A stretch of 44,878 nucleotides of DNA. Source: a virus. Its lineage: Duplodnaviria; Heunggongvirae; Uroviricota; Caudoviricetes. The notes under the pieces were generated by a model. That model saw only the letters and a list, made by a program, of their open reading frames with translations, was not told where the DNA came from and did no database searches. Position numbers and translations under genes: made by a program. Below are positions 9,587-36,804 of the stretch, one piece after another. Location of the stretch: positions 1 through 44,878 of the IMG/VR virus record IMGVR_UViG_2563366802_000013; one strand, written 5' to 3'. Position 1 is the first letter of the stretch; each line of letters opens with the position of its first letter.

Positions 9587-10083
9587 TACGGCACTCTCGG
9601 TAAAGATTCCGGGTCGCGCCCGTCAGGATAACCAGTGACAACGATATCCAGCCACGAATCCCACGGTGGCGGCAGTTCAACAATGATATCGTCGAACTCG
9701 TCGTCGGCGTTGTAAAGGTGGTTCGCGATAACCGTCCCTGTCCAGGTCACCACCCCGCCGTCGATACTGGTTTGCACCGGCATCTGCGTGAAGTGGAGCT
9801 CCTGTAGCTGCAATCCACTGCCGCCAAGATTGATATTCATCCGAAACCAGTTCAGACCACGGTTGAGATAGTTAGGGCTGCGCAGCCACTGCTGAAATGC
9901 GCGCTCCTGCGCCAGAGTGAAGATCCATGTCAGTGACCAGGTCACCTTCAGGTCGTCGGTTTGATTCTCGAAGATAGCCGGGCCGACCGCTGGCTGATCG
10001 GTCTGGAACCCGGTATCGAGCGTCATGTTTTTGCTGGCCTTCTGCGCCAGCGGCAGCCAGTCGGGATAGTCGATAATTGGCAT
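9586..10083 (-). CDS. Minor tail protein (lambda M-like position)
   Basis: 165 aa; start overlaps the tape-measure stop; position immediately after TMP. Confidence 0.5.
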   Translation of the reverse strand: MPIIDYPDWLPLAQKASKNMTLDTGFQTDQPAVGPAIFENQTDDLKVTWSLTWIFTLAQERAFQQWLRSPNYLNRGLNWFRMNINLGGSGLQLQELHFTQMPVQTSIDGGVVTWTGTVIANHLYNADDEFDDIIVELPPPWDSWLDIVVTGYPDGRDPESLPRVP

Positions 10084-12590
10084 CAGCCCTGCCCCCTTGG
10101 CGTGCGTTTAACGTTCATGTTGCTGGTAATGGCGTTGCTTGCCGGGCCGCCGTTATTCATGTCAGCGATGAATGCCTCAAGCGTCCATGAACCATCACCG
10201 TTCTGTGTAGCCTGAGCATCTACAGAGGCGGATGAGTAGTTGTAGATGTTGAGAATCGGAGCGCCGCCACCTCCACCCGAAGCCATGTCCTTATTGCTGA
10301 TCACCCTGCCGTTGTCGCCCGGTATCATGTACTGCTTACCGGTACTGGCCTGGTAAATCTCCGGCTTCCCTCGCTCACCGACCTGATAAAGACCTCCTGC
10401 ATTCACCGGGCCGCCATTGTAACGCATACCGGTTAAAGCAAGGCCCTGTGCCAGGCCTACCGTTGAAGCAATTCCTGTCATGGCAGGAACTGAGTTGGCC
10501 CCAAATGAAGCGAGGCTCGCCATGGCGGCGGCAGGAGCCCAAGCTGTAGCCAAGATTGCAGCCTGAGATGCTCCAGCAGCAGTAGCTGCTGCGCCCAATG
10601 TCTGCCCGATAATGAAGTTTTTGAGAGCCTCAACCCCAACCTGGACTAGCGCATTTACCACGCTATTCAGCATCGTGTTACCGAGTGAGCGCATAGCATC
10701 CTGCGCTGACATCGTTCCGGTGATCAGCCCGGTTAACGCATTGGATGCATTGCCTGAAAACGCATCTACTGCACTTGTCAGCATTTCATAACCAAGACCT
10801 TGCTGGCTGAGCAATTGCCACTGAGCGGCTGTCATCTGCTCATTGAACTGGTTTTCCTGCGCAGTCTTTAAGGCAAGGTACTGGGCATCGGTAGCTGCCT
10901 TTGCAGCAACGAACTGATCGTAATTTATTTTCCCTTTTTGGTAACTTTGCTGGAGTATCGCCTGTTCCTGCTGCTGATATTGCTGCATCAGGGCTAACTT
11001 CTGGTTATTTTCGTTCACCAGTTGCTGTACCGGGTCAACTTCGGCTCGGGCAGAAGCTACCGGATTGACTGTGGCCTGGGCGTTAATCTTGGCGAGGTTA
11101 TTCTGGTGCTCGAGCGCCATTTTCTCCGTGGCAGCGTTATACTCCTTGAGATCTATTTTCCCAGCGTTCAGTGCGGCCTTCAGATTTTGCATGGATTCTG
11201 CGTAGGATTTATTCTCCGCCTGCAAAGGCATTGCCTTAAGTGCTTCAGTTACCCCTCTGGCTGCCGCTGCTGCATCCCATGCTTTGGCGGCGTATTCTCC
11301 AGCCTCTTTAATCTGTGCTTGAGTTGCAGCGCTACCGAGTGACTGCTGAGCATTCAGAACAGCTTGCGCACGAGACAACTCACCCAAGCTTCCTGCGGAA
11401 AGTTGCGCCTTCTGTCTAAGCTCTTCCAGCTTTTCGTTAACTGTCTGCTGCGCCTTAGCATATTTTTCTGCTTCCTTTTCGGCCTGAGTCTTTTTCTTTT
11501 TGCCTGTACCAGCAACAGCCTTTATCTCGATCGGCTTTGTGTTTGCCGCGGTCTGTGATGCTTTGGAAACAGCGGCCAGGTCGCCAACCAGCATGGCGGC
11601 TTTATTGCTTAGCCCGGCCAGCGCTTTGTTTTGCGCCTCCCAGCCATCAAGCCCAAGCCATGACCAGGTTCGCGCCCGGCGGGTAAACATCTCTGCTGTG
11701 CTGTTCAGTTCTGAAATCTGCGCATCCGCTGAGATTGCCTTCCCCACCAGCCTGTCGAGAGCGGCCGTCATCGAGTCGATAACCGCAACCAGTCCTGTGC
11801 TTGCGCCTGTCGCCTGGTTAACAGAGTCAATCATCGACAGGAATGAGTTTGTCAGCGCGGTATTGGCTTGAGCCAGAGTACGAGGAAGTTTTTCGAACTC
11901 TGCATTTACTGAGCTGGTTTGTTTCTGGATGGCATTAAGCGCATCTTCTGCTGTCAGTTTCCCGTCCAACATCAGTTGACGCAGTTCGCCGATACTTACG
12001 CCCATCCCGGCGGCGATCTGCCGCGCCAGTTCAGGCATTTGCTCAAGGATGGAGTTGAACTCCTCCGCCCGGACAGTGCCGGAGGAAATTGACTGGCCGA
12101 ACTGACGAAGAGCATTCGCCATTTCTTCGGAAGAGGATCCGCCAATGCGACCTATTTTCTGAAGTGTTTCGGTGAGCTGGATGATCTGGCCGTTCGTCGC
12201 GCCGGTATCGCGCAACGCCGTGCTGAGAGTCTCCCACAGCTTCGCTGTATCCTGTAGCGAACCACCCGTTGCCGAACTGATGCGCATCAGACTCTGCATA
12301 GTCTGCGAGGCTGCCCCTGCGCTACCAGTGAGCCTCTCTATACGCGCGTTGAGCTGGCTCATGTTGTCAGCAGCAACGAGAAACGCCTTACCCCAGTCAA
12401 CTACGAGTGAGGCGGCAATTGCCCCGGCGACGCGGTTGATGTTCGTCTGCAACTCATCCATCTTTTTGGCTGCATTGGTCGCCGAGTTGCCGATGGAGTC
12501 GAGCGACTTATTGGCCTTTCCCTGGGCCTTGAGCAAGCCAGATACATCGGCCTCGATGTCGTAATAAATCTCGCCTGCTTTCTCAGACAT
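10083..12590 (-). CDS. Tail tape measure protein
   Basis: 835 aa; Ala/Gln/Leu-rich coiled-coil composition with Gly-rich C-terminal region; ATG with GGAG SD; canonical position. Confidence 0.9.
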   Translation of the reverse strand: MSEKAGEIYYDIEADVSGLLKAQGKANKSLDSIGNSATNAAKKMDELQTNINRVAGAIAASLVVDWGKAFLVAADNMSQLNARIERLTGSAGAASQTMQSLMRISSATGGSLQDTAKLWETLSTALRDTGATNGQIIQLTETLQKIGRIGGSSSEEMANALRQFGQSISSGTVRAEEFNSILEQMPELARQIAAGMGVSIGELRQLMLDGKLTAEDALNAIQKQTSSVNAEFEKLPRTLAQANTALTNSFLSMIDSVNQATGASTGLVAVIDSMTAALDRLVGKAISADAQISELNSTAEMFTRRARTWSWLGLDGWEAQNKALAGLSNKAAMLVGDLAAVSKASQTAANTKPIEIKAVAGTGKKKKTQAEKEAEKYAKAQQTVNEKLEELRQKAQLSAGSLGELSRAQAVLNAQQSLGSAATQAQIKEAGEYAAKAWDAAAAARGVTEALKAMPLQAENKSYAESMQNLKAALNAGKIDLKEYNAATEKMALEHQNNLAKINAQATVNPVASARAEVDPVQQLVNENNQKLALMQQYQQQEQAILQQSYQKGKINYDQFVAAKAATDAQYLALKTAQENQFNEQMTAAQWQLLSQQGLGYEMLTSAVDAFSGNASNALTGLITGTMSAQDAMRSLGNTMLNSVVNALVQVGVEALKNFIIGQTLGAAATAAGASQAAILATAWAPAAAMASLASFGANSVPAMTGIASTVGLAQGLALTGMRYNGGPVNAGGLYQVGERGKPEIYQASTGKQYMIPGDNGRVISNKDMASGGGGGAPILNIYNYSSASVDAQATQNGDGSWTLEAFIADMNNGGPASNAITSNMNVKRTPRGQG

Positions 12591-12606
12591 CAGTTTTCTC
12601 CGGGCA

Positions 12607-12631
12607 TAAAAAAACCCACCGAGTGGTGGGT
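12607..12631 (-). terminator. Intrinsic terminator downstream of the lipoprotein moron
   Basis: Minus-strand hairpin ACCCACC-actc-GGTGGGT followed by a U7 run. Confidence 0.55.
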
Positions 12632-12647
12632 TAGTTATTCGTGTCGT

Positions 12648-13022
12648 TTATTGGCATCGTTCTGTGTAGGCCGGTGGTGGAGGCGTATCTTTCGAACTGA
12701 GGAAGTGATCACCAAGGGTGTAGTCGACGCCTTTTGAGAACATCCCCTTCGATTTCATTTTCAGCTCAACAAAGAATGGATGGAACCCTGCATAGGCACC
12801 GAAACCGTTCTTTCCGTTAATTTCCCCGCAAACAACAGCATTAACACGACCGTCATCGGCATCTGTCATCTTCACGACTTTCACGTTACGGAATTGTGCG
12901 CTGCCAGGATCCAGTAGATTGGCTGAAACTTCAGATTGTGCCAGAGAAATTGCCTTTTCCTCGCCCGGCTTACAGCCAGCCAGAACCAGTGGAATCACCA
13001 AAGCCAAAAGTATTTTTTTCAC
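12648..13022 (-). CDS. Lipoprotein (moron inside tail operon; candidate superinfection-exclusion or envelope factor)
   Basis: 124 aa; signal peptide with lipobox LVLAGC; GTG start with SD; followed by its own terminator; inserted between tail chaperone and TMP. Confidence 0.7.
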   Translation of the reverse strand: MKKILLALVIPLVLAGCKPGEEKAISLAQSEVSANLLDPGSAQFRNVKVVKMTDADDGRVNAVVCGEINGKNGFGAYAGFHPFFVELKMKSKGMFSKGVDYTLGDHFLSSKDTPPPPAYTERCQ

Positions 13023-13094
13023 TCTTATCCCCTGAGTTTTATTGTCGAGCCATATTACGCCCGGTCAGGCGATTACGGTACATCCATTATTAAC

Positions 13095-13856
13095 TCAGGC
13101 CGCTTTCTTTGCTGATTTTTCGCGCTCAATCATTTCCTGCCAACGGCGATCGTCATCGTCCATAACCGCGTCATACTCTTCCCTGGTGAAGCCTTTCTGG
13201 TCAGGGTATTTGGCTTTAAGCATCATAGCGAACTCGGTCATAGTAAGATTTTCAGCCTCTTCCCTGCTGATCCCGAAATGGTTTCGCGCCGCCATGATGT
13301 ATTCAGTCGCATGAAATTCCGGCGTCGTTTCCTTGCTTTCGTGCTTCTGCAACTTACGAACCTTCGCCCGTCCGATAACGCCATGCATGATCAGCGACTG
13401 AGCTATCAGAATCAGGTTCTCAGGCGGGAGAGAGCCGCGGCGCCATACAAACGTACGCCTGCCAGTACGTGAAGGCTCATGCCAGCCTGTCAATTCAGAA
13501 ACGTCCTCGTCACAGCATGACTGAATGACGTTAATAGCCGAGAGCAATGCCTCGCGCACAAAAGCAGCTGAACCTGCTGCATCAAGTGCCCACCGAGGCA
13601 TGGAAACATCGCCGAAGTAATGAGCGTAAAATCTGCGCTGATGCTCTGGTATCGCACTGTGAATCTCTCGCGCCGCTTCAAGCATCTTTGCCACATCGTC
13701 ATTGAACAGCGCATAGAAAGTGCGGACGATATGCTCTGGCTCGCCGATCCGAGTCATGTTACGGAACGATGGGCGGAAGAAGTATTCACGGCCACCAGCA
13801 CCAATCAGGCACTCGCCAATTTCTTTCAATGGGGTCATATCGTTCTCCATAACCAT
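13095..13856 (-). CDS. Tail assembly chaperone (G/T-like position)
   Basis: Position between major tail protein and TMP; start uncertain (several in-frame Met near 13838-13856); Asp-rich acidic C-terminus. Confidence 0.45.
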   Translation of the reverse strand: MVMENDMTPLKEIGECLIGAGGREYFFRPSFRNMTRIGEPEHIVRTFYALFNDDVAKMLEAAREIHSAIPEHQRRFYAHYFGDVSMPRWALDAAGSAAFVREALLSAINVIQSCCDEDVSELTGWHEPSRTGRRTFVWRRGSLPPENLILIAQSLIMHGVIGRAKVRKLQKHESKETTPEFHATEYIMAARNHFGISREEAENLTMTEFAMMLKAKYPDQKGFTREEYDAVMDDDDRRWQEMIEREKSAKKAA

Positions 13857-14656: not shown

Positions 14657-14685
14657 AATAAAAAAAGGCCGCCGGATGGCAGCCT
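14657..14685 (-). terminator. Intrinsic terminator/attenuator upstream of the major tail gene
   Basis: Minus-strand hairpin GGCTGCC-atcc-GGCGGCC followed by U7AUUU. Confidence 0.45.
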
Positions 14686-27602: not shown

Positions 27603-28103
27603 TCATTGAAAAGCAAGCGCGTTATGAGGATTTTTTGCAATTTTCCTCATATTTTCGCGATTGTTAAACGCATTTTGCAGCGGTTGGTACAAACAGAACA
27701 GTGAGGCATTGATGATTTGCTTCACCTCTCTACGGATTGTCGAGATGCTTGGGTGTTTATACTGATTTCCGCCACGCGTCTTCATCAGGCGAGGCTTACT
27801 TACTGCATGCTGCCATGATGCAATTCGGATCTCGCTGGAGTTACAAACGTAGTAGGCGAAGACAACCCGCCAGGCATTTTCATCCACATTCTTCAGATAG
27901 TGACGAATTACAGCATCAATGAGCATCCCGTCATCATCACTACATACCGGTCGTGATGCTTGCTGGGGCTCGACGGTAGCCATGAATCTGGCAATCATGT
28001 TGATCATCGCTTTATCAATCTTGCCGGTCTGGCACCATGCGCCCCACAACTGGAGCCACTGGTCTACCCATTGATGCTGGTCTTTGGTTAATTCCAGTTT
28101 CAT
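27603..28103 (-). CDS. Q: Late-gene antitermination protein Q (phage 21/82-type family)
   Basis: 166 aa; motifs WLQLWGAWC and RPVCSDDDGMLID...FAYYV match the Q antiterminator family as I recall it; positioned immediately upstream of the lysis genes. Confidence 0.8.
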   Translation of the reverse strand: MKLELTKDQHQWVDQWLQLWGAWCQTGKIDKAMINMIARFMATVEPQQASRPVCSDDDGMLIDAVIRHYLKNVDENAWRVVFAYYVCNSSEIRIASWQHAVSKPRLMKTRGGNQYKHPSISTIRREVKQIINASLFCLYQPLQNAFNNRENMRKIAKNPHNALAFQ

Positions 28104-28862: not shown

Positions 28863-29025
28863 GCGTTCTCCGTGCCGCGAGACGCAGCCATTTCTGATCC
28901 ACCAGGCGGGCGGTGTACCCCTTCAGGGTCGGGATGTCGGACGGATTAACCGCAGGCTTACGCTGGCGGCGCGCCGGAACGCGGAATATTTCGTTTGTGA
29001 TTACGCGGGAAAGTGGAGTAGACAT
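28855..29025 (-). CDS. Hypothetical 56-aa basic protein
   Basis: Below the track's 60-aa cutoff; ATG with AGGAGG SD; TGATG overlap with the HNH stop; stop overlaps the DUF1364 start. Confidence 0.35.
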   Translation of the reverse strand: MSTPLSRVITNEIFRVPARRQRKPAVNPSDIPTLKGYTARLVDQKWLRLAARRTHG

Positions 29026-29546
29026 CAGGCCTCCTGCTTATCGCGCAGCTGCTGGTAGCAATGACTATTGGGCAGTCCGTGATTGACATGGTAACCATGC
29101 TCAGCCTTTGCCTTGTCGCGAGCTTGCTTTGCTTCTTCCATGCTCTCGTAAACACCCACGAACTTTCTTTTTCCGTCGGCGTTGATCTGGACATGCCACT
29201 TGCTTAGTTTTTTATTCCAATGGATACCAATCTCACCTGATGTATTGGTGCTGGGTAGCGATTTGTTACGGGTATTATCCGACTGGCTTATCAGCCTAAG
29301 GTTTTCAATCCGATTGTCTGCTCGGACGTGATTTATGTGGTCAACCTCCATTCCTTCCGGAATTGGGCCGTTTATCATTTCCCATACAATTCTATGCGCC
29401 AGGTATTGACAGCCAGAGTATTCAAACCTTCTGTAGCCATCGCTAAGACATCCTGCAACGTCACCAATTTTTACCCTGTTAGCTGGCTTTATGGCCCACA
29501 CAAGATTTCCATCAACAATGGAAAATATATCGCTCCAGTTATGCAT
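29025..29546 (-). CDS. HNH homing endonuclease with AP2-like domain (second copy)
   Basis: 173 aa; HNH core MEVDHINHVRADNRIENLRLIS; paralogous to ORF 8641-9108 (shared YLAHRI...E.NGPIP block). Confidence 0.8.
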   Translation of the reverse strand: MHNWSDIFSIVDGNLVWAIKPANRVKIGDVAGCLSDGYRRFEYSGCQYLAHRIVWEMINGPIPEGMEVDHINHVRADNRIENLRLISQSDNTRNKSLPSTNTSGEIGIHWNKKLSKWHVQINADGKRKFVGVYESMEEAKQARDKAKAEHGYHVNHGLPNSHCYQQLRDKQEA

Positions 29547-35189: not shown

Positions 35190-35732
35190 TCACATAACCC
35201 CCAACATCGAAGTGACCATAGCCATCAGCGGCGCGGTCAGATCCGGGTCGACACGGAACATCTCTACAATCCCCTCACTGAGTTCCTTGAGCTTCTGGTG
35301 ACGCGGGGCGTTCATCGCAACGGCCACTTTCGCCTCGCTCGTTTCCTTCTCAAGTCGAGCTAAGCGGGACATGAAACTATCCTCGGGAAGAAGTCGATGG
35401 CGATACTCCAGAGGCAGCACGGCCATGATTGCGGGCGTCAGCTGGCGCACGTTCTCGCGGTACTGCTCGGAGTCGAAGCGATTATCCAGGAAGCGAAACA
35501 GTTTCTGGCGCGCCCGGCTGATGTCTTCCGGAAAGCTGATGGCGGTACCGCCCTGCTCCCGGTATTCGTTGATGATCAGCGCCGAAACGACGTCCTGATT
35601 GTCCAGCGCCGACGACCATGCCCGGACCGCATCGCGGATCTTTTCGTGGTCTGGCGCCGCTTTAGCTTGAGCGCGGTTTATCACCGCTCCCTGGTGTATT
35701 CCGGTATTGTGTTGATACGCAAGTGAATGCAT
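35190..35732 (-). CDS. YdaT-like regulatory protein (CII-position)
   Basis: 180 aa; resembles Rac prophage YdaT as I recall it (QKLFRFL, LTPAIMAVLP blocks); directly downstream of the Cro/YdaS-like gene. Confidence 0.55.
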   Translation of the reverse strand: MHSLAYQHNTGIHQGAVINRAQAKAAPDHEKIRDAVRAWSSALDNQDVVSALIINEYREQGGTAISFPEDISRARQKLFRFLDNRFDSEQYRENVRQLTPAIMAVLPLEYRHRLLPEDSFMSRLARLEKETSEAKVAVAMNAPRHQKLKELSEGIVEMFRVDPDLTAPLMAMVTSMLGVM

Positions 35733-36099: not shown

Positions 36100-36804
36100 A
36101 TGAAAACATTCGCAGATCGACTTAACGCGGCTATGAGAGCCGCAGGCATATCCCAAGGGCAGCTGGCTGAGAAAGTCGGCATATCTCAACCTGCAATTCA
36201 GAAAATGACATCAGGCAAAACCACAGGCAGCCGTAAGATGGTTGAGCTTGCTCATGCATTGAACGTGCGTCCGGAATGGCTCAGTTCGGGCATAGGCTCA
36301 ATGCAGGACGAAGGACGCAAGGACTCCGCTATCCCACCAGAATCGGAATGGGGTAAAGTTGACGCTTGGGATAGCAAAACAGATCTGCCAGATGACGAGG
36401 TCGAAGTGCCATATCTGAAAGACATAGAACTTGCGTGTGGTGATGGTTCCTGCTTGGAAGATGACTATAACGGATTCAAACTTCGTTTTGCGAAGTCTAC
36501 CCTTCGTAAGGTGGGAGCCCAGAAAGATAGCGTGCTGTGCTTCCCGGCATCAGGAAATAGCATGGAGCCCATGATCCCGGAAGGGACGACGGTCGCCATC
36601 AACACGAACGACAAAAAGATCGTTGATGGCAAGGTTTATGCAATAAGCCAGGACGGATGGAAAAGGCTAAAATCCATTTATCGTGTGAGTCCTACCCGCA
36701 TCGTGATTCGCAGCTTCAACAGTGAAGAGTACCCTGATGAAGAAGCGGATATCGAGAGCGTAGAGATTATTGGTCGCATGTTCTGGACATCTACTATCTG
36801 GTAA
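36100..36804 (+). CDS. cI: CI-type prophage repressor (N-terminal HTH, C-terminal S24 LexA-like autopeptidase)
   Basis: 234 aa; HTH ISQGQLAEKVGISQPAIQKM; S24 catalytic block GNSMEP and Lys in ...DGWKRLK... Confidence 0.9.
   Translation: MKTFADRLNAAMRAAGISQGQLAEKVGISQPAIQKMTSGKTTGSRKMVELAHALNVRPEWLSSGIGSMQDEGRKDSAIPPESEWGKVDAWDSKTDLPDDEVEVPYLKDIELACGDGSCLEDDYNGFKLRFAKSTLRKVGAQKDSVLCFPASGNSMEPMIPEGTTVAINTNDKKIVDGKVYAISQDGWKRLKSIYRVSPTRIVIRSFNSEEYPDEEADIESVEIIGRMFWTSTIW

Follow-up and report, generated by a model that had tools for sequence, protein, structure and literature searches.

A moron-like lipoprotein gene in an exchangeable slot before the tape measure gene of a lambdoid prophage

The stretch of DNA analysed here (44,878 nucleotides, IMG/VR record IMGVR_UViG_2563366802_000013, hereafter the window) is a lambdoid, Q-dependent prophage in which a gene for a 124-aa lipoprotein separates the last tail-assembly gene, coding for a DUF6246 protein, from the tape measure protein (TMP) gene. 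Comparison of this junction with those of related prophages indicates that the lipoprotein gene is a classical moron, most probably acquired horizontally as a cassette between these two genes. The layout itself is ordinary, indeed textbook, and the cargo comes from a large and still uncharacterised family of lipoproteins.

Setting of the slot in the prophage

The slot is bounded on its left by the DUF6246 gene (247 aa, 13095–13838, minus strand; PF19759, E 3.6e-73, with the start taken from RefSeq annotation of relatives) and on its right by the TMP gene (835 aa, 10083–12590, minus strand), the latter identified by PF20155 TMP_3 (E 2.4e-57) together with matches to tape measure PHROGs, and initiated by an ATG at 12590 with an SD GGAG at 12601–12598. 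The gene for an Ig-domain major tail protein precedes that for the DUF6246 protein, which is presumed from gene position only to be a tail assembly chaperone, a structure search with this protein having been uninformative. Every gene in the slot region of the window lies on the minus strand. The Q-type antiterminator gene (27603–28103, minus strand; PF06530 Phage_antitermQ, E 2e-21) is followed downstream on the same strand by holin, lysozyme and Rz genes, all upstream of the tail genes, and a CI-like repressor gene is located at 36100–36804. No match to the region was found by Megablast in the phage collection, and hence no sequenced isolate of a close phage.

The lipoprotein gene

The initial annotation had described a 124-aa lipoprotein with a GTG start, an SD and a LAGC lipobox, and each of these elements was found on the minus strand at 12648–13022, the gene call drawing on the ORF list, the LPAM_1 and phrog_2320 matches, dN/dS, a RefSeq CDS and an AF2 model. 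The GTG start codon occupies 13022–13020, with an SD AGGGGA at 13033–13028, 5 nt 5' of it; codons 1–16 (13022–12975) specify the signal peptide, 12974–12972 the lipobox Cys17, and 12971–12651 the mature domain. The N-terminus, MKKILLALVIPLVLAG followed by the lipobox C, is a canonical SPase II signal peptide, comprising a positive n-region, a hydrophobic h-region and a lipobox of the form [LVI][ASTVI][GAS]C (MKK-ILLALVIPLV-LAGC). The signal peptide check gave a Pfam LPAM_1 match of 23.4 bits against a cut-off of 20, and the lipobox is kept in orthologues.

An identical 375-nt CDS is present in RefSeq in E. coli XJ5.2, the prophage of which is 99.9% identical to the window, under the name 'membrane lipoprotein lipid attachment site-containing protein'. 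More than 60 protein clusters with 85–98% identity to the lipoprotein were recovered from Enterobacter, Klebsiella, E. coli, Salmonella and Citrobacter, and comparison with the orthologues of E. coli M37H and Klebsiella aerogenes yielded dN/dS values of 0.06–0.09 at a dS of ~0.9. Because of these dN/dS values and the breadth of these clusters the ORF is a genuine gene under strong purifying selection, and no chance ORF. A gene on the opposite strand across the region was considered and rejected, the plus-strand ORFs being short and the minus-strand frame being the one under purifying selection.

Empty, swapped and filled slots

When the junction was compared in the 27 complete E. coli genomes that matched it, the lipoprotein proved to be present in only five. 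A further four, the GB089 group, have flanks 93% identical to those of the window around a slot occupied by a different 119-aa secreted protein encoded by AT-rich DNA (36% GC), while the slot of FDAARGOS_1277 holds a 109-aa secreted protein, that of LR-28 four genes, and that of strain 53 a KilA-N gene plus others. The slot is empty in E. coli CUPF06, where 36 bp separate the DUF6246 stop from the TMP start, in E. coli L73 (61 bp), and in Erwinia endophytica (44 bp); across the E. coli prophages with an empty or alternative slot the flanks remain 86–93% identical. A second sample, consisting of 24 species-representative genomes or prophages found via the DUF6246 protein, gave DUF6246–TMP gaps ranging from 44 bp to 3.5 kb, and within it the lipoprotein was confined to four representatives, all Enterobacter.

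Since prophages that are collinear apart from this slot have it either vacant or occupied by unrelated genes, the lipoprotein gene is interpreted as cargo, and the earlier description of it as moron-like was upheld. It constitutes extra DNA that is present or absent in otherwise collinear genomes and, to a modest extent, its base composition is unlike that of its neighbours, with a GC content of 48.0% and a GC3 of 46% compared with 52–55% and 56–62% respectively for the DUF6246, TMP and major tail genes. In alignments the left boundary of the cassette is marked by a break in similarity within the last few DUF6246 codons, which differ by cargo type, and the right boundary by its resumption at the terminator.

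The insertion point had been considered unusual, a view that was not borne out, the site being a textbook moron slot of the kind seen in the HK97 order gp15 – terminator – TMP. HK97 gene 15 was the first moron to be described. In the GenBank record its product is entered as 'moron product', and between the gene and TMP there is a putative terminator, 12 nt short of the TMP start. The sister phage HK022 does not have gene 15.

A terminator present with and without cargo

The strong intrinsic terminator claimed to follow the lipoprotein gene is indeed present (12606–12632, minus strand), as judged by a terminator scan, fold energy and conservation in relatives. It begins 15 nt past the lipoprotein stop codon and reads AACCCACC-ACTC-GGTGGGTT (12632–12613), giving a stem of 8 pairs (12632–12625 with 12620–12613) closed by the loop ACTC, after which come a T-run of 7 T (12614–12608) and, directly after the terminator, the TMP SD. 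The dG from 12632 to 12608 is −13.4 kcal/mol, with a z of −3.56 against shuffles.

Its assignment to the lipoprotein gene as 'its own terminator' had to be revised. A hairpin, a T-run and the sequence ATGCCyGGAG stand directly 5' of the TMP start in 23 of the 24 species-representative loci, with compensatory changes in the stem, and the terminator was likewise found in every E. coli variant examined and in all three of the empty slots seen (CUPF06, L73 and Erwinia endophytica). Because of this occurrence in 23 of 24 loci and in the three empty slots, the terminator before the TMP gene is a constant of the slot, with a stem sequence that tracks the cargo: the stem is CCCACC/GGTGGG in all lipoprotein carriers, including E. 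coli M37H with flanks only 86% identical to the window, and CCCGC/GCGGG in GB089, despite flanks that are 93% identical. Since the stem follows the cargo and not flank identity, cassette exchange seems to include the terminator stem, with the T-run and ribosome-binding site serving as the right-hand anchor. The lipoprotein gene thus ends, as expected of a moron, in a strong hairpin plus T-run of a stem type that travels with it, yet the terminator is also retained by slots from which cargo is absent. This retention suggests a role in the phage backbone, for example to keep the tail genes insulated in lysogens or to adjust mRNA levels; in an empty slot, such insulation or 3'-end stabilisation of the upstream message are both possible. 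A second intrinsic terminator is located at 14685–14666, before the major tail gene. An Rfam search of 12400–13300 returned sub-threshold matches only, driven by the terminator hairpin.

The leader and candidate promoter

Between the window, E. coli M37H and K. aerogenes the 46 nt 5' of the start codon are almost invariant, at a divergence at which synonymous sites are near saturation (dS ~0.9). This conserved leader (13023–13070, minus strand), near-invariant in relatives and carrying the positioned TAnnAT of slot cargo genes, includes a −10-like TAATAT (13057–13052) that ends 29 nt before the GTG and is followed by GGGGATAAGA; an alternative, weak CTGACC-N16-GACAAT (13068–13063 and 13046–13041) lies in the same leader. 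A consensus promoter scan of the window found two sites in 7 kb as against 4.8 expected, which is chance level, and the best candidates had a poor −35.

A comparison across the slot was more informative. When the 21 cargo genes of the slot that code for exported proteins, for the most part not homologous to one another, were right-aligned on their start codons, a TAnnAT hexamer ending 27–34 nt before the start codon was observed in 17 of them, the expectation being that one hexamer of this type would occur by chance in such an 8-nt range in ~3% of sequences. The hexamer is mostly TAGGAT, is often preceded by TGn as in an extended −10, and is followed by an GGGGATAGGGAT-type SD; several of the 21 genes also have TTGnnn at 16 nt spacing, and TGaTAGGAT recurs before a 49% identical homologue in a lambda-like phage. 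A promoter-gene-terminator unit is consequently a well supported reading for the slot as a class, as far as sequence comparison can carry it, and a plausible though weaker one for the copy in the window. Comparison accordingly speaks for the promoter proposed in the initial annotation, through the near-invariant leader and the 17 of 21 cargo genes, but the window's own scan does not, with its chance-level return and poor −35.

Genomic contexts of homologues

Homologues with 46–50% identity were located after ogr at the ends of P2-like prophages (Salmonella phage SEN5, K. oxytoca), where they are preceded by a terminator and a promoter-like element and followed by a terminator of their own. Others separate gpK from gpI in lambda-like phages (Fraca, LMessi and a metagenomic contig), a position marked as a moron slot in the GenBank record of HK022. 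The family profile also gave significant matches to more distant members. One of these, in a Caulobacter prophage, comes immediately after a CI-type repressor gene and has the same orientation. In a Rhizorhabdus prophage the homologue is flanked by a DUF6441 gene on one side and a gene for a TMP-like protein of 1008 aa on the other, with a terminator again just before the TMP-like gene. Two more are inverted, one between major tail and chaperone genes in a metagenomic siphophage, the other between the tail assembly chaperones and TMP of Gordonia phage Dorito, in this case with the lipobox LIAGC. Eighteen other Gordonia phage records gave tblastn matches at genome positions similar to that in Dorito, and further distant members occur in T5-like and Acinetobacter phages. 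The 'PG_binding_1' label borne by ORF76 of an Acinetobacter phage was not reproduced by a Pfam scan.

Of the 13 homologue contexts whose neighbours were examined, 12 were phage or prophage and one was an ordinary chromosomal, non-phage context. The lipoprotein gene would on this showing be a passenger with transcription of its own that recurs in many types of phage, often in particular beside the TMP gene. Adjacency to TMP genes was seen in phages of Enterobacterales, Rhizorhabdus (Sphingomonadales) and Gordonia (Actinobacteria).

Family, conserved residues and predicted fold

At a threshold of E ≤ 1e-3 the family profile matched 13,226 clusters, built at 50% identity, of which 6,074 also passed E ≤ 1e-10. 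The lipoprotein belongs to phrog_2320 (E 1.9e-32 over residues 1–105), but this membership does not explain a mechanism, since neither phrog_2320 nor any of the related PHROGs matched has an annotated function. Other searches were similarly silent on function: there is no Pfam model for the family, the Pfam match being limited to the LPAM_1 signal; NCBIfam and PADLOC scans of the lipoprotein, the DUF6246 protein and the GB089 cargo produced nothing meaningful; a PDB sequence search with the family profile gave chance matches only; BFVD returned only unannotated phage lipoproteins; and nothing relevant was found in the literature on DUF6246, phrog_2320, phrog_791 or Gordonia phage lipoproteins beside TMP. 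This very large family recurs beside TMP genes across phyla, and assignment of a single function could cover thousands of hypothetical proteins.

The family shares the motif DPxSAxF...CGxxNxKNxxGAYxG, its invariant residues being D38, P39, S41, F44, C65, G66, N72, G75, A76, Y77, G79 and F83; C123 is nearly so, and a C65–C123 disulfide is likely from this pattern of conservation. An AlphaFold model of the lipoprotein (pLDDT 81, pTM 0.71) predicts an antiparallel sheet of four strands against which a helix packs, together with a short helix at the C-terminus, a small alpha+beta domain with a predicted cystatin/NTF2-like fold, for which the fold match is generic. The residue after the lipobox Cys governs the membrane sorting of lipoproteins (the +2 rule), and because that residue is here a Lys, the lipoprotein is predicted to be sorted to the outer membrane.

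Exported cargo throughout the slot

In nearly every cargo-bearing locus of the DUF6246 type, a prophage lineage that is widespread in enterobacteria, the gene adjacent to TMP codes for a lipoprotein or a signal-peptide protein. These exported cargo proteins belong to at least 12 different PHROG families, all without known function, one of them with a BamE-like domain. Comparison of the family with the alternative cargos by hhalign gave a weak match to the GB089 protein (probability 59%) that includes the signal peptide, the others aligning over the signal peptide only, and homology is not claimed. Cargo type does not track either the length or the N-terminal sequence of TMP. Such turnover among unrelated exported cargo fits a conflict interface, and the DUF6246-type slot is a compact hotspot that can readily be mined for candidate phage-conflict genes acting on the envelope. 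What is worth following is the exported cargo across the slot, with its shared leader and terminator, and the recurrence of the family beside TMP genes.

Comparison with exclusion morons

The closest parallel in position is HK97 gene 15, which occupies the same slot, from the last tail-assembly gene to TMP, in the same small gene-terminator-TMP layout. Its product is a prophage-expressed inner-membrane exclusion protein that blocks DNA entry, with a specificity that maps to the tail (PMC3594210). The two proteins are nonetheless dissimilar, gp15 being a 62-aa, YebO-like protein of the inner membrane and the present product a 124-aa lipoprotein of predicted outer-membrane location with a folded periplasmic domain; an hhalign probability of 0.3% and an hmmsearch E of 0.5 indicated no sequence relationship between them and no place for the lipoprotein in the YebO family. 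Comparison with HK022 gp20 similarly disclosed no sequence relationship.

A parallel in protein type is provided by Ltp of Streptococcus thermophilus phage TP-J34, a prophage lipoprotein that is regarded as a moron and blocks DNA injection (PMC3952083), and for which TMP is the reported target according to the title of a paper cited there (Bebeacua et al. 2013). Like the gene studied here, Ltp is a prophage lipoprotein moron, and if that title is taken at its word it shows that exclusion can target TMP. Tab of phage JBD26 was considered as a further analogue and rejected, its gene lying between terminase genes and so in another slot.

Proposed role

By analogy with these systems, the role tentatively preferred, at a confidence that falls short of even, is that of an envelope-level phage-exclusion factor acting at the periplasmic entry step rather than by shielding one particular receptor at the cell surface. 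A weak constitutive promoter (−10 TAATAT, 13057–13052) would drive the lipoprotein gene in the lysogen, and the terminator would keep the resulting transcript out of the tail genes. In the lytic cycle, given the presence of Q, polymerase modified by it would be expected to read through both terminators (14685–14666 and 12632–12608), at which stage the lipoprotein gene would also be carried on the late transcript. After lipidation the protein would reside in the outer membrane, facing the periplasm, where it might interfere with the passage of tail tip or tape measure and with DNA entry.

In favour of exclusion are the precedent of HK97 gp15, a prophage-expressed exclusion protein of the same slot and layout (PMC3594210), and that of Ltp, a lipoprotein with TMP as its target as reported in the title cited above. 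The slot-wide pattern points the same way, with TMP-adjacent exported cargo drawn from at least 12 unrelated PHROG families and members of this family beside TMP in phages of Enterobacterales, Rhizorhabdus and Gordonia. Independent transcription is favoured by the invariant leader, the TAnnAT in 17 of 21 cargo genes, and the homologues placed after ogr, after a CI-type gene and, in two cases, inverted within tail operons. Weighing against exclusion, the protein matched nothing of known function in PADLOC, NCBIfam or PHROG, and adjacency to TMP could be due to nothing more than a site that tolerates insertions. Nor does cargo type track TMP length or N-terminal sequence. The terminator, persisting as it does in empty slots, may serve the phage backbone independently of the cargo, and lysogen expression in particular has against it the poor −35 and chance-level consensus scan of the window, its case being a comparative one.

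A broader proposal, more doubtful than the role suggested for the single protein, is that this family, very large and so far unrecognised, of exported proteins from phages and bacteria represents a novel class of exclusion factors that act in the periplasm against tape measure or tail-tip penetration. The pre-TMP slot of DUF6246-type prophages would then be a hotspot dedicated to swapping exported anti-phage proteins of this kind, bounded at one end by a conserved TGnTAGGAT promoter with its leader and at the other by a conserved terminator. If true, it would explain the presence of the family beside TMP genes in phages of Enterobacterales, Sphingomonadales and Actinobacteria.

Alternative explanations

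The size of the family, at some 13,000 clusters, its invariant motif and the existence of at least one non-phage chromosomal member also weigh against exclusion, in that they could mean a general envelope function. It is conceivable, though rather unlikely, that the lipoprotein is an envelope factor that benefits the host and has nothing to do with phage entry, for example a periplasmic protein that inhibits, or gives immunity to, cell-wall hydrolases or toxins of the protease type, or a stress- or serum-resistance lipoprotein like lambda Bor. Besides the very large family and the chromosomal copy, the invariant loop residues and the BamE-like nature of one alternative slot cargo lend themselves to this explanation. 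Set against them are the generic character of the fold match, the failure to identify an inhibitor motif in the cystatin/NTF2-like lipoprotein, and Pfam scans of longer family members and other cargo proteins that revealed no informative domain fusion. The phage or prophage location of 12 of the 13 homologue contexts is a further objection, and an animal-virulence role in particular is argued against by occurrence in soil actinophages and alphaproteobacterial prophages.

It is improbable that the protein is a late-only accessory, made from the Q-antiterminated transcript and silent in lysogens, which might for example modify the envelope of the dying cell. The late-operon orientation of the gene, its own SD, the poor −35 in the window and the presence of Q are all compatible with such expression, but a positionally fixed −10-like element across unrelated cargo genes is not what it would predict. 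Nor would it account for homologues outside late operons, namely those that follow ogr and lie between two terminators, the one that follows a CI-like repressor gene and those inverted in tail operons, and the relatives with an empty slot show the lipoprotein to be dispensable for virion production in that lineage.

The initial annotation had drawn an analogy with Cor (HK022/phi80/N15) and Llp (T5), which like the present protein are small phage lipoproteins of Gram-negative hosts. A lipoprotein of this type would, from the outer membrane, inactivate the phage's own receptor, preventing adsorption or DNA triggering and sparing progeny from debris. The present protein resembles them as a small, outer-membrane-sorted lipoprotein encoded in a tail region, and Cor is itself annotated as 'moron product' in the GenBank record of HK022. 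The analogy is a functional one only, since hhalign with HK022 Cor aligned 19 columns, all of them signal peptide, and hmmsearch gave an E of 0.026 over residues 1–24, placing the lipoprotein outside the Cor family; moreover, neither phrog_1119 (Cor) nor any exclusion-annotated PHROG was among the PHROG matches. The Cor gene lies downstream of a J-type tail fibre gene, and the Llp gene adjoins that for a receptor-binding protein. The lipoprotein gene, unlike these, is unlinked to tailspike type: L73 has the window's GDSL tailspike with an empty slot, and in HL15 and SF10 the lipoprotein is accompanied by a different spike. Because the lipoprotein does not travel with the receptor-binding module, a Cor-like block of the phage's own receptor is disfavoured, and with homologues of about 50% identity distributed among P2-like, lambda-like, T5-like and Gordonia phages, the receptor-binding proteins of which are unrelated, this too is an improbable explanation.

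That the gene is a conserved structural one, coding for a virion or tail-assembly component, is effectively refuted in spite of its location inside the tail gene block and the name 'predicted phage tail protein' given to one relative in a JGI record, because the SPase II signal peptide would export the product from the cytoplasm, the site of tail assembly, and the gene is absent or replaced in collinear relatives and found with unrelated tail types.

Putative promoter and leader of the slot, and terminator elements

A comparison of the exported and largely non-homologous cargo genes that occupy the slot between the DUF6246 and tape measure genes (loci L024-L047, L002, L007 and L010) revealed a TAnnAT element, mostly in the form TGnTAGGAT, at a fixed position, its end lying 27-34 nt 5' of the cargo start codon, and a GGGGATAGGGAT-type Shine-Dalgarno sequence downstream of it. 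Such an arrangement suggests that a common promoter and leader serve as the left anchor of cassette exchange in the slot. At the other end, the terminator hairpin preceding the tape measure gene was retained in the empty slots (L001 1560..1590, L008 and L029) despite the complete lack of cargo. Elsewhere within the late operon of the window (14666..14685, minus strand), the tail terminator protein gene is separated from the major tail protein gene by another strong intrinsic terminator, in which AGGCTGCC-ATCC-GGCGGCCT precedes a T-run.

Start of the lipoprotein gene, and outlying or possible family members

Directly 3' of the GTG start of the lipoprotein gene lies a run of seven A residues (window 13013..13019, minus strand). 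The equivalent run in Enterobacter cloacae M-7 (L028 4820..4827) consists of eight, thereby shifting the frame of the signal peptide; the additional residue could be either a sequencing error or the mark of a slippage-prone tract.

In E. coli GB089 the lipoprotein is replaced by an AT-rich gene coding for a secreted protein (L002 1379..1738, minus strand), which gave a weak match to the profile of the lipoprotein family (hhalign probability 59%, E 9e-5), its stretch '...VCLKVSGRKNDG...' being aligned with 'VCGEINGKNGFG'. On this alignment, the GB089 cargo may be a very distant relative of the family. Gene 16 of Gordonia phage Dorito (L053 3926..4264) encodes a family member with a lipobox; it has the tail assembly chaperone genes on one side and the tape measure gene on the other, and its orientation is opposite to that of the structural operon. 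Similar tblastn matches were recorded in 18 other Gordonia phage records at comparable genome positions.

Other genes of the prophage

A more obvious exclusion candidate in the window prophage is a convergent pair comprising an Acyl_transf_3 (Oac-like O-acetyltransferase) gene (2019..3107, plus strand) and the tailspike gene (3143..5725, minus strand), the product of which combines a Tail_spike_N domain and an SGNH/GDSL esterase domain in one protein. The two genes appear to couple a lysogenic-conversion function with a receptor-modifying spike, and in relatives the tailspike is replaced by other spike types.

Two HNH_3 endonuclease genes were detected, both on the minus strand (8641..9108 and 29025..29546). 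The first, flanked by the NlpC/P60 tail gene on one side and by the minor tail genes on the other, has the appearance of a homing-endonuclease insertion and, as read from differences in coverage, is missing from some relatives. A short Peptidase_S24-like open reading frame (1159..1548, minus strand) adjoins the integrase gene, and a gene with a YdaT_toxin domain (35190..35732, minus strand) is located near the immunity region.
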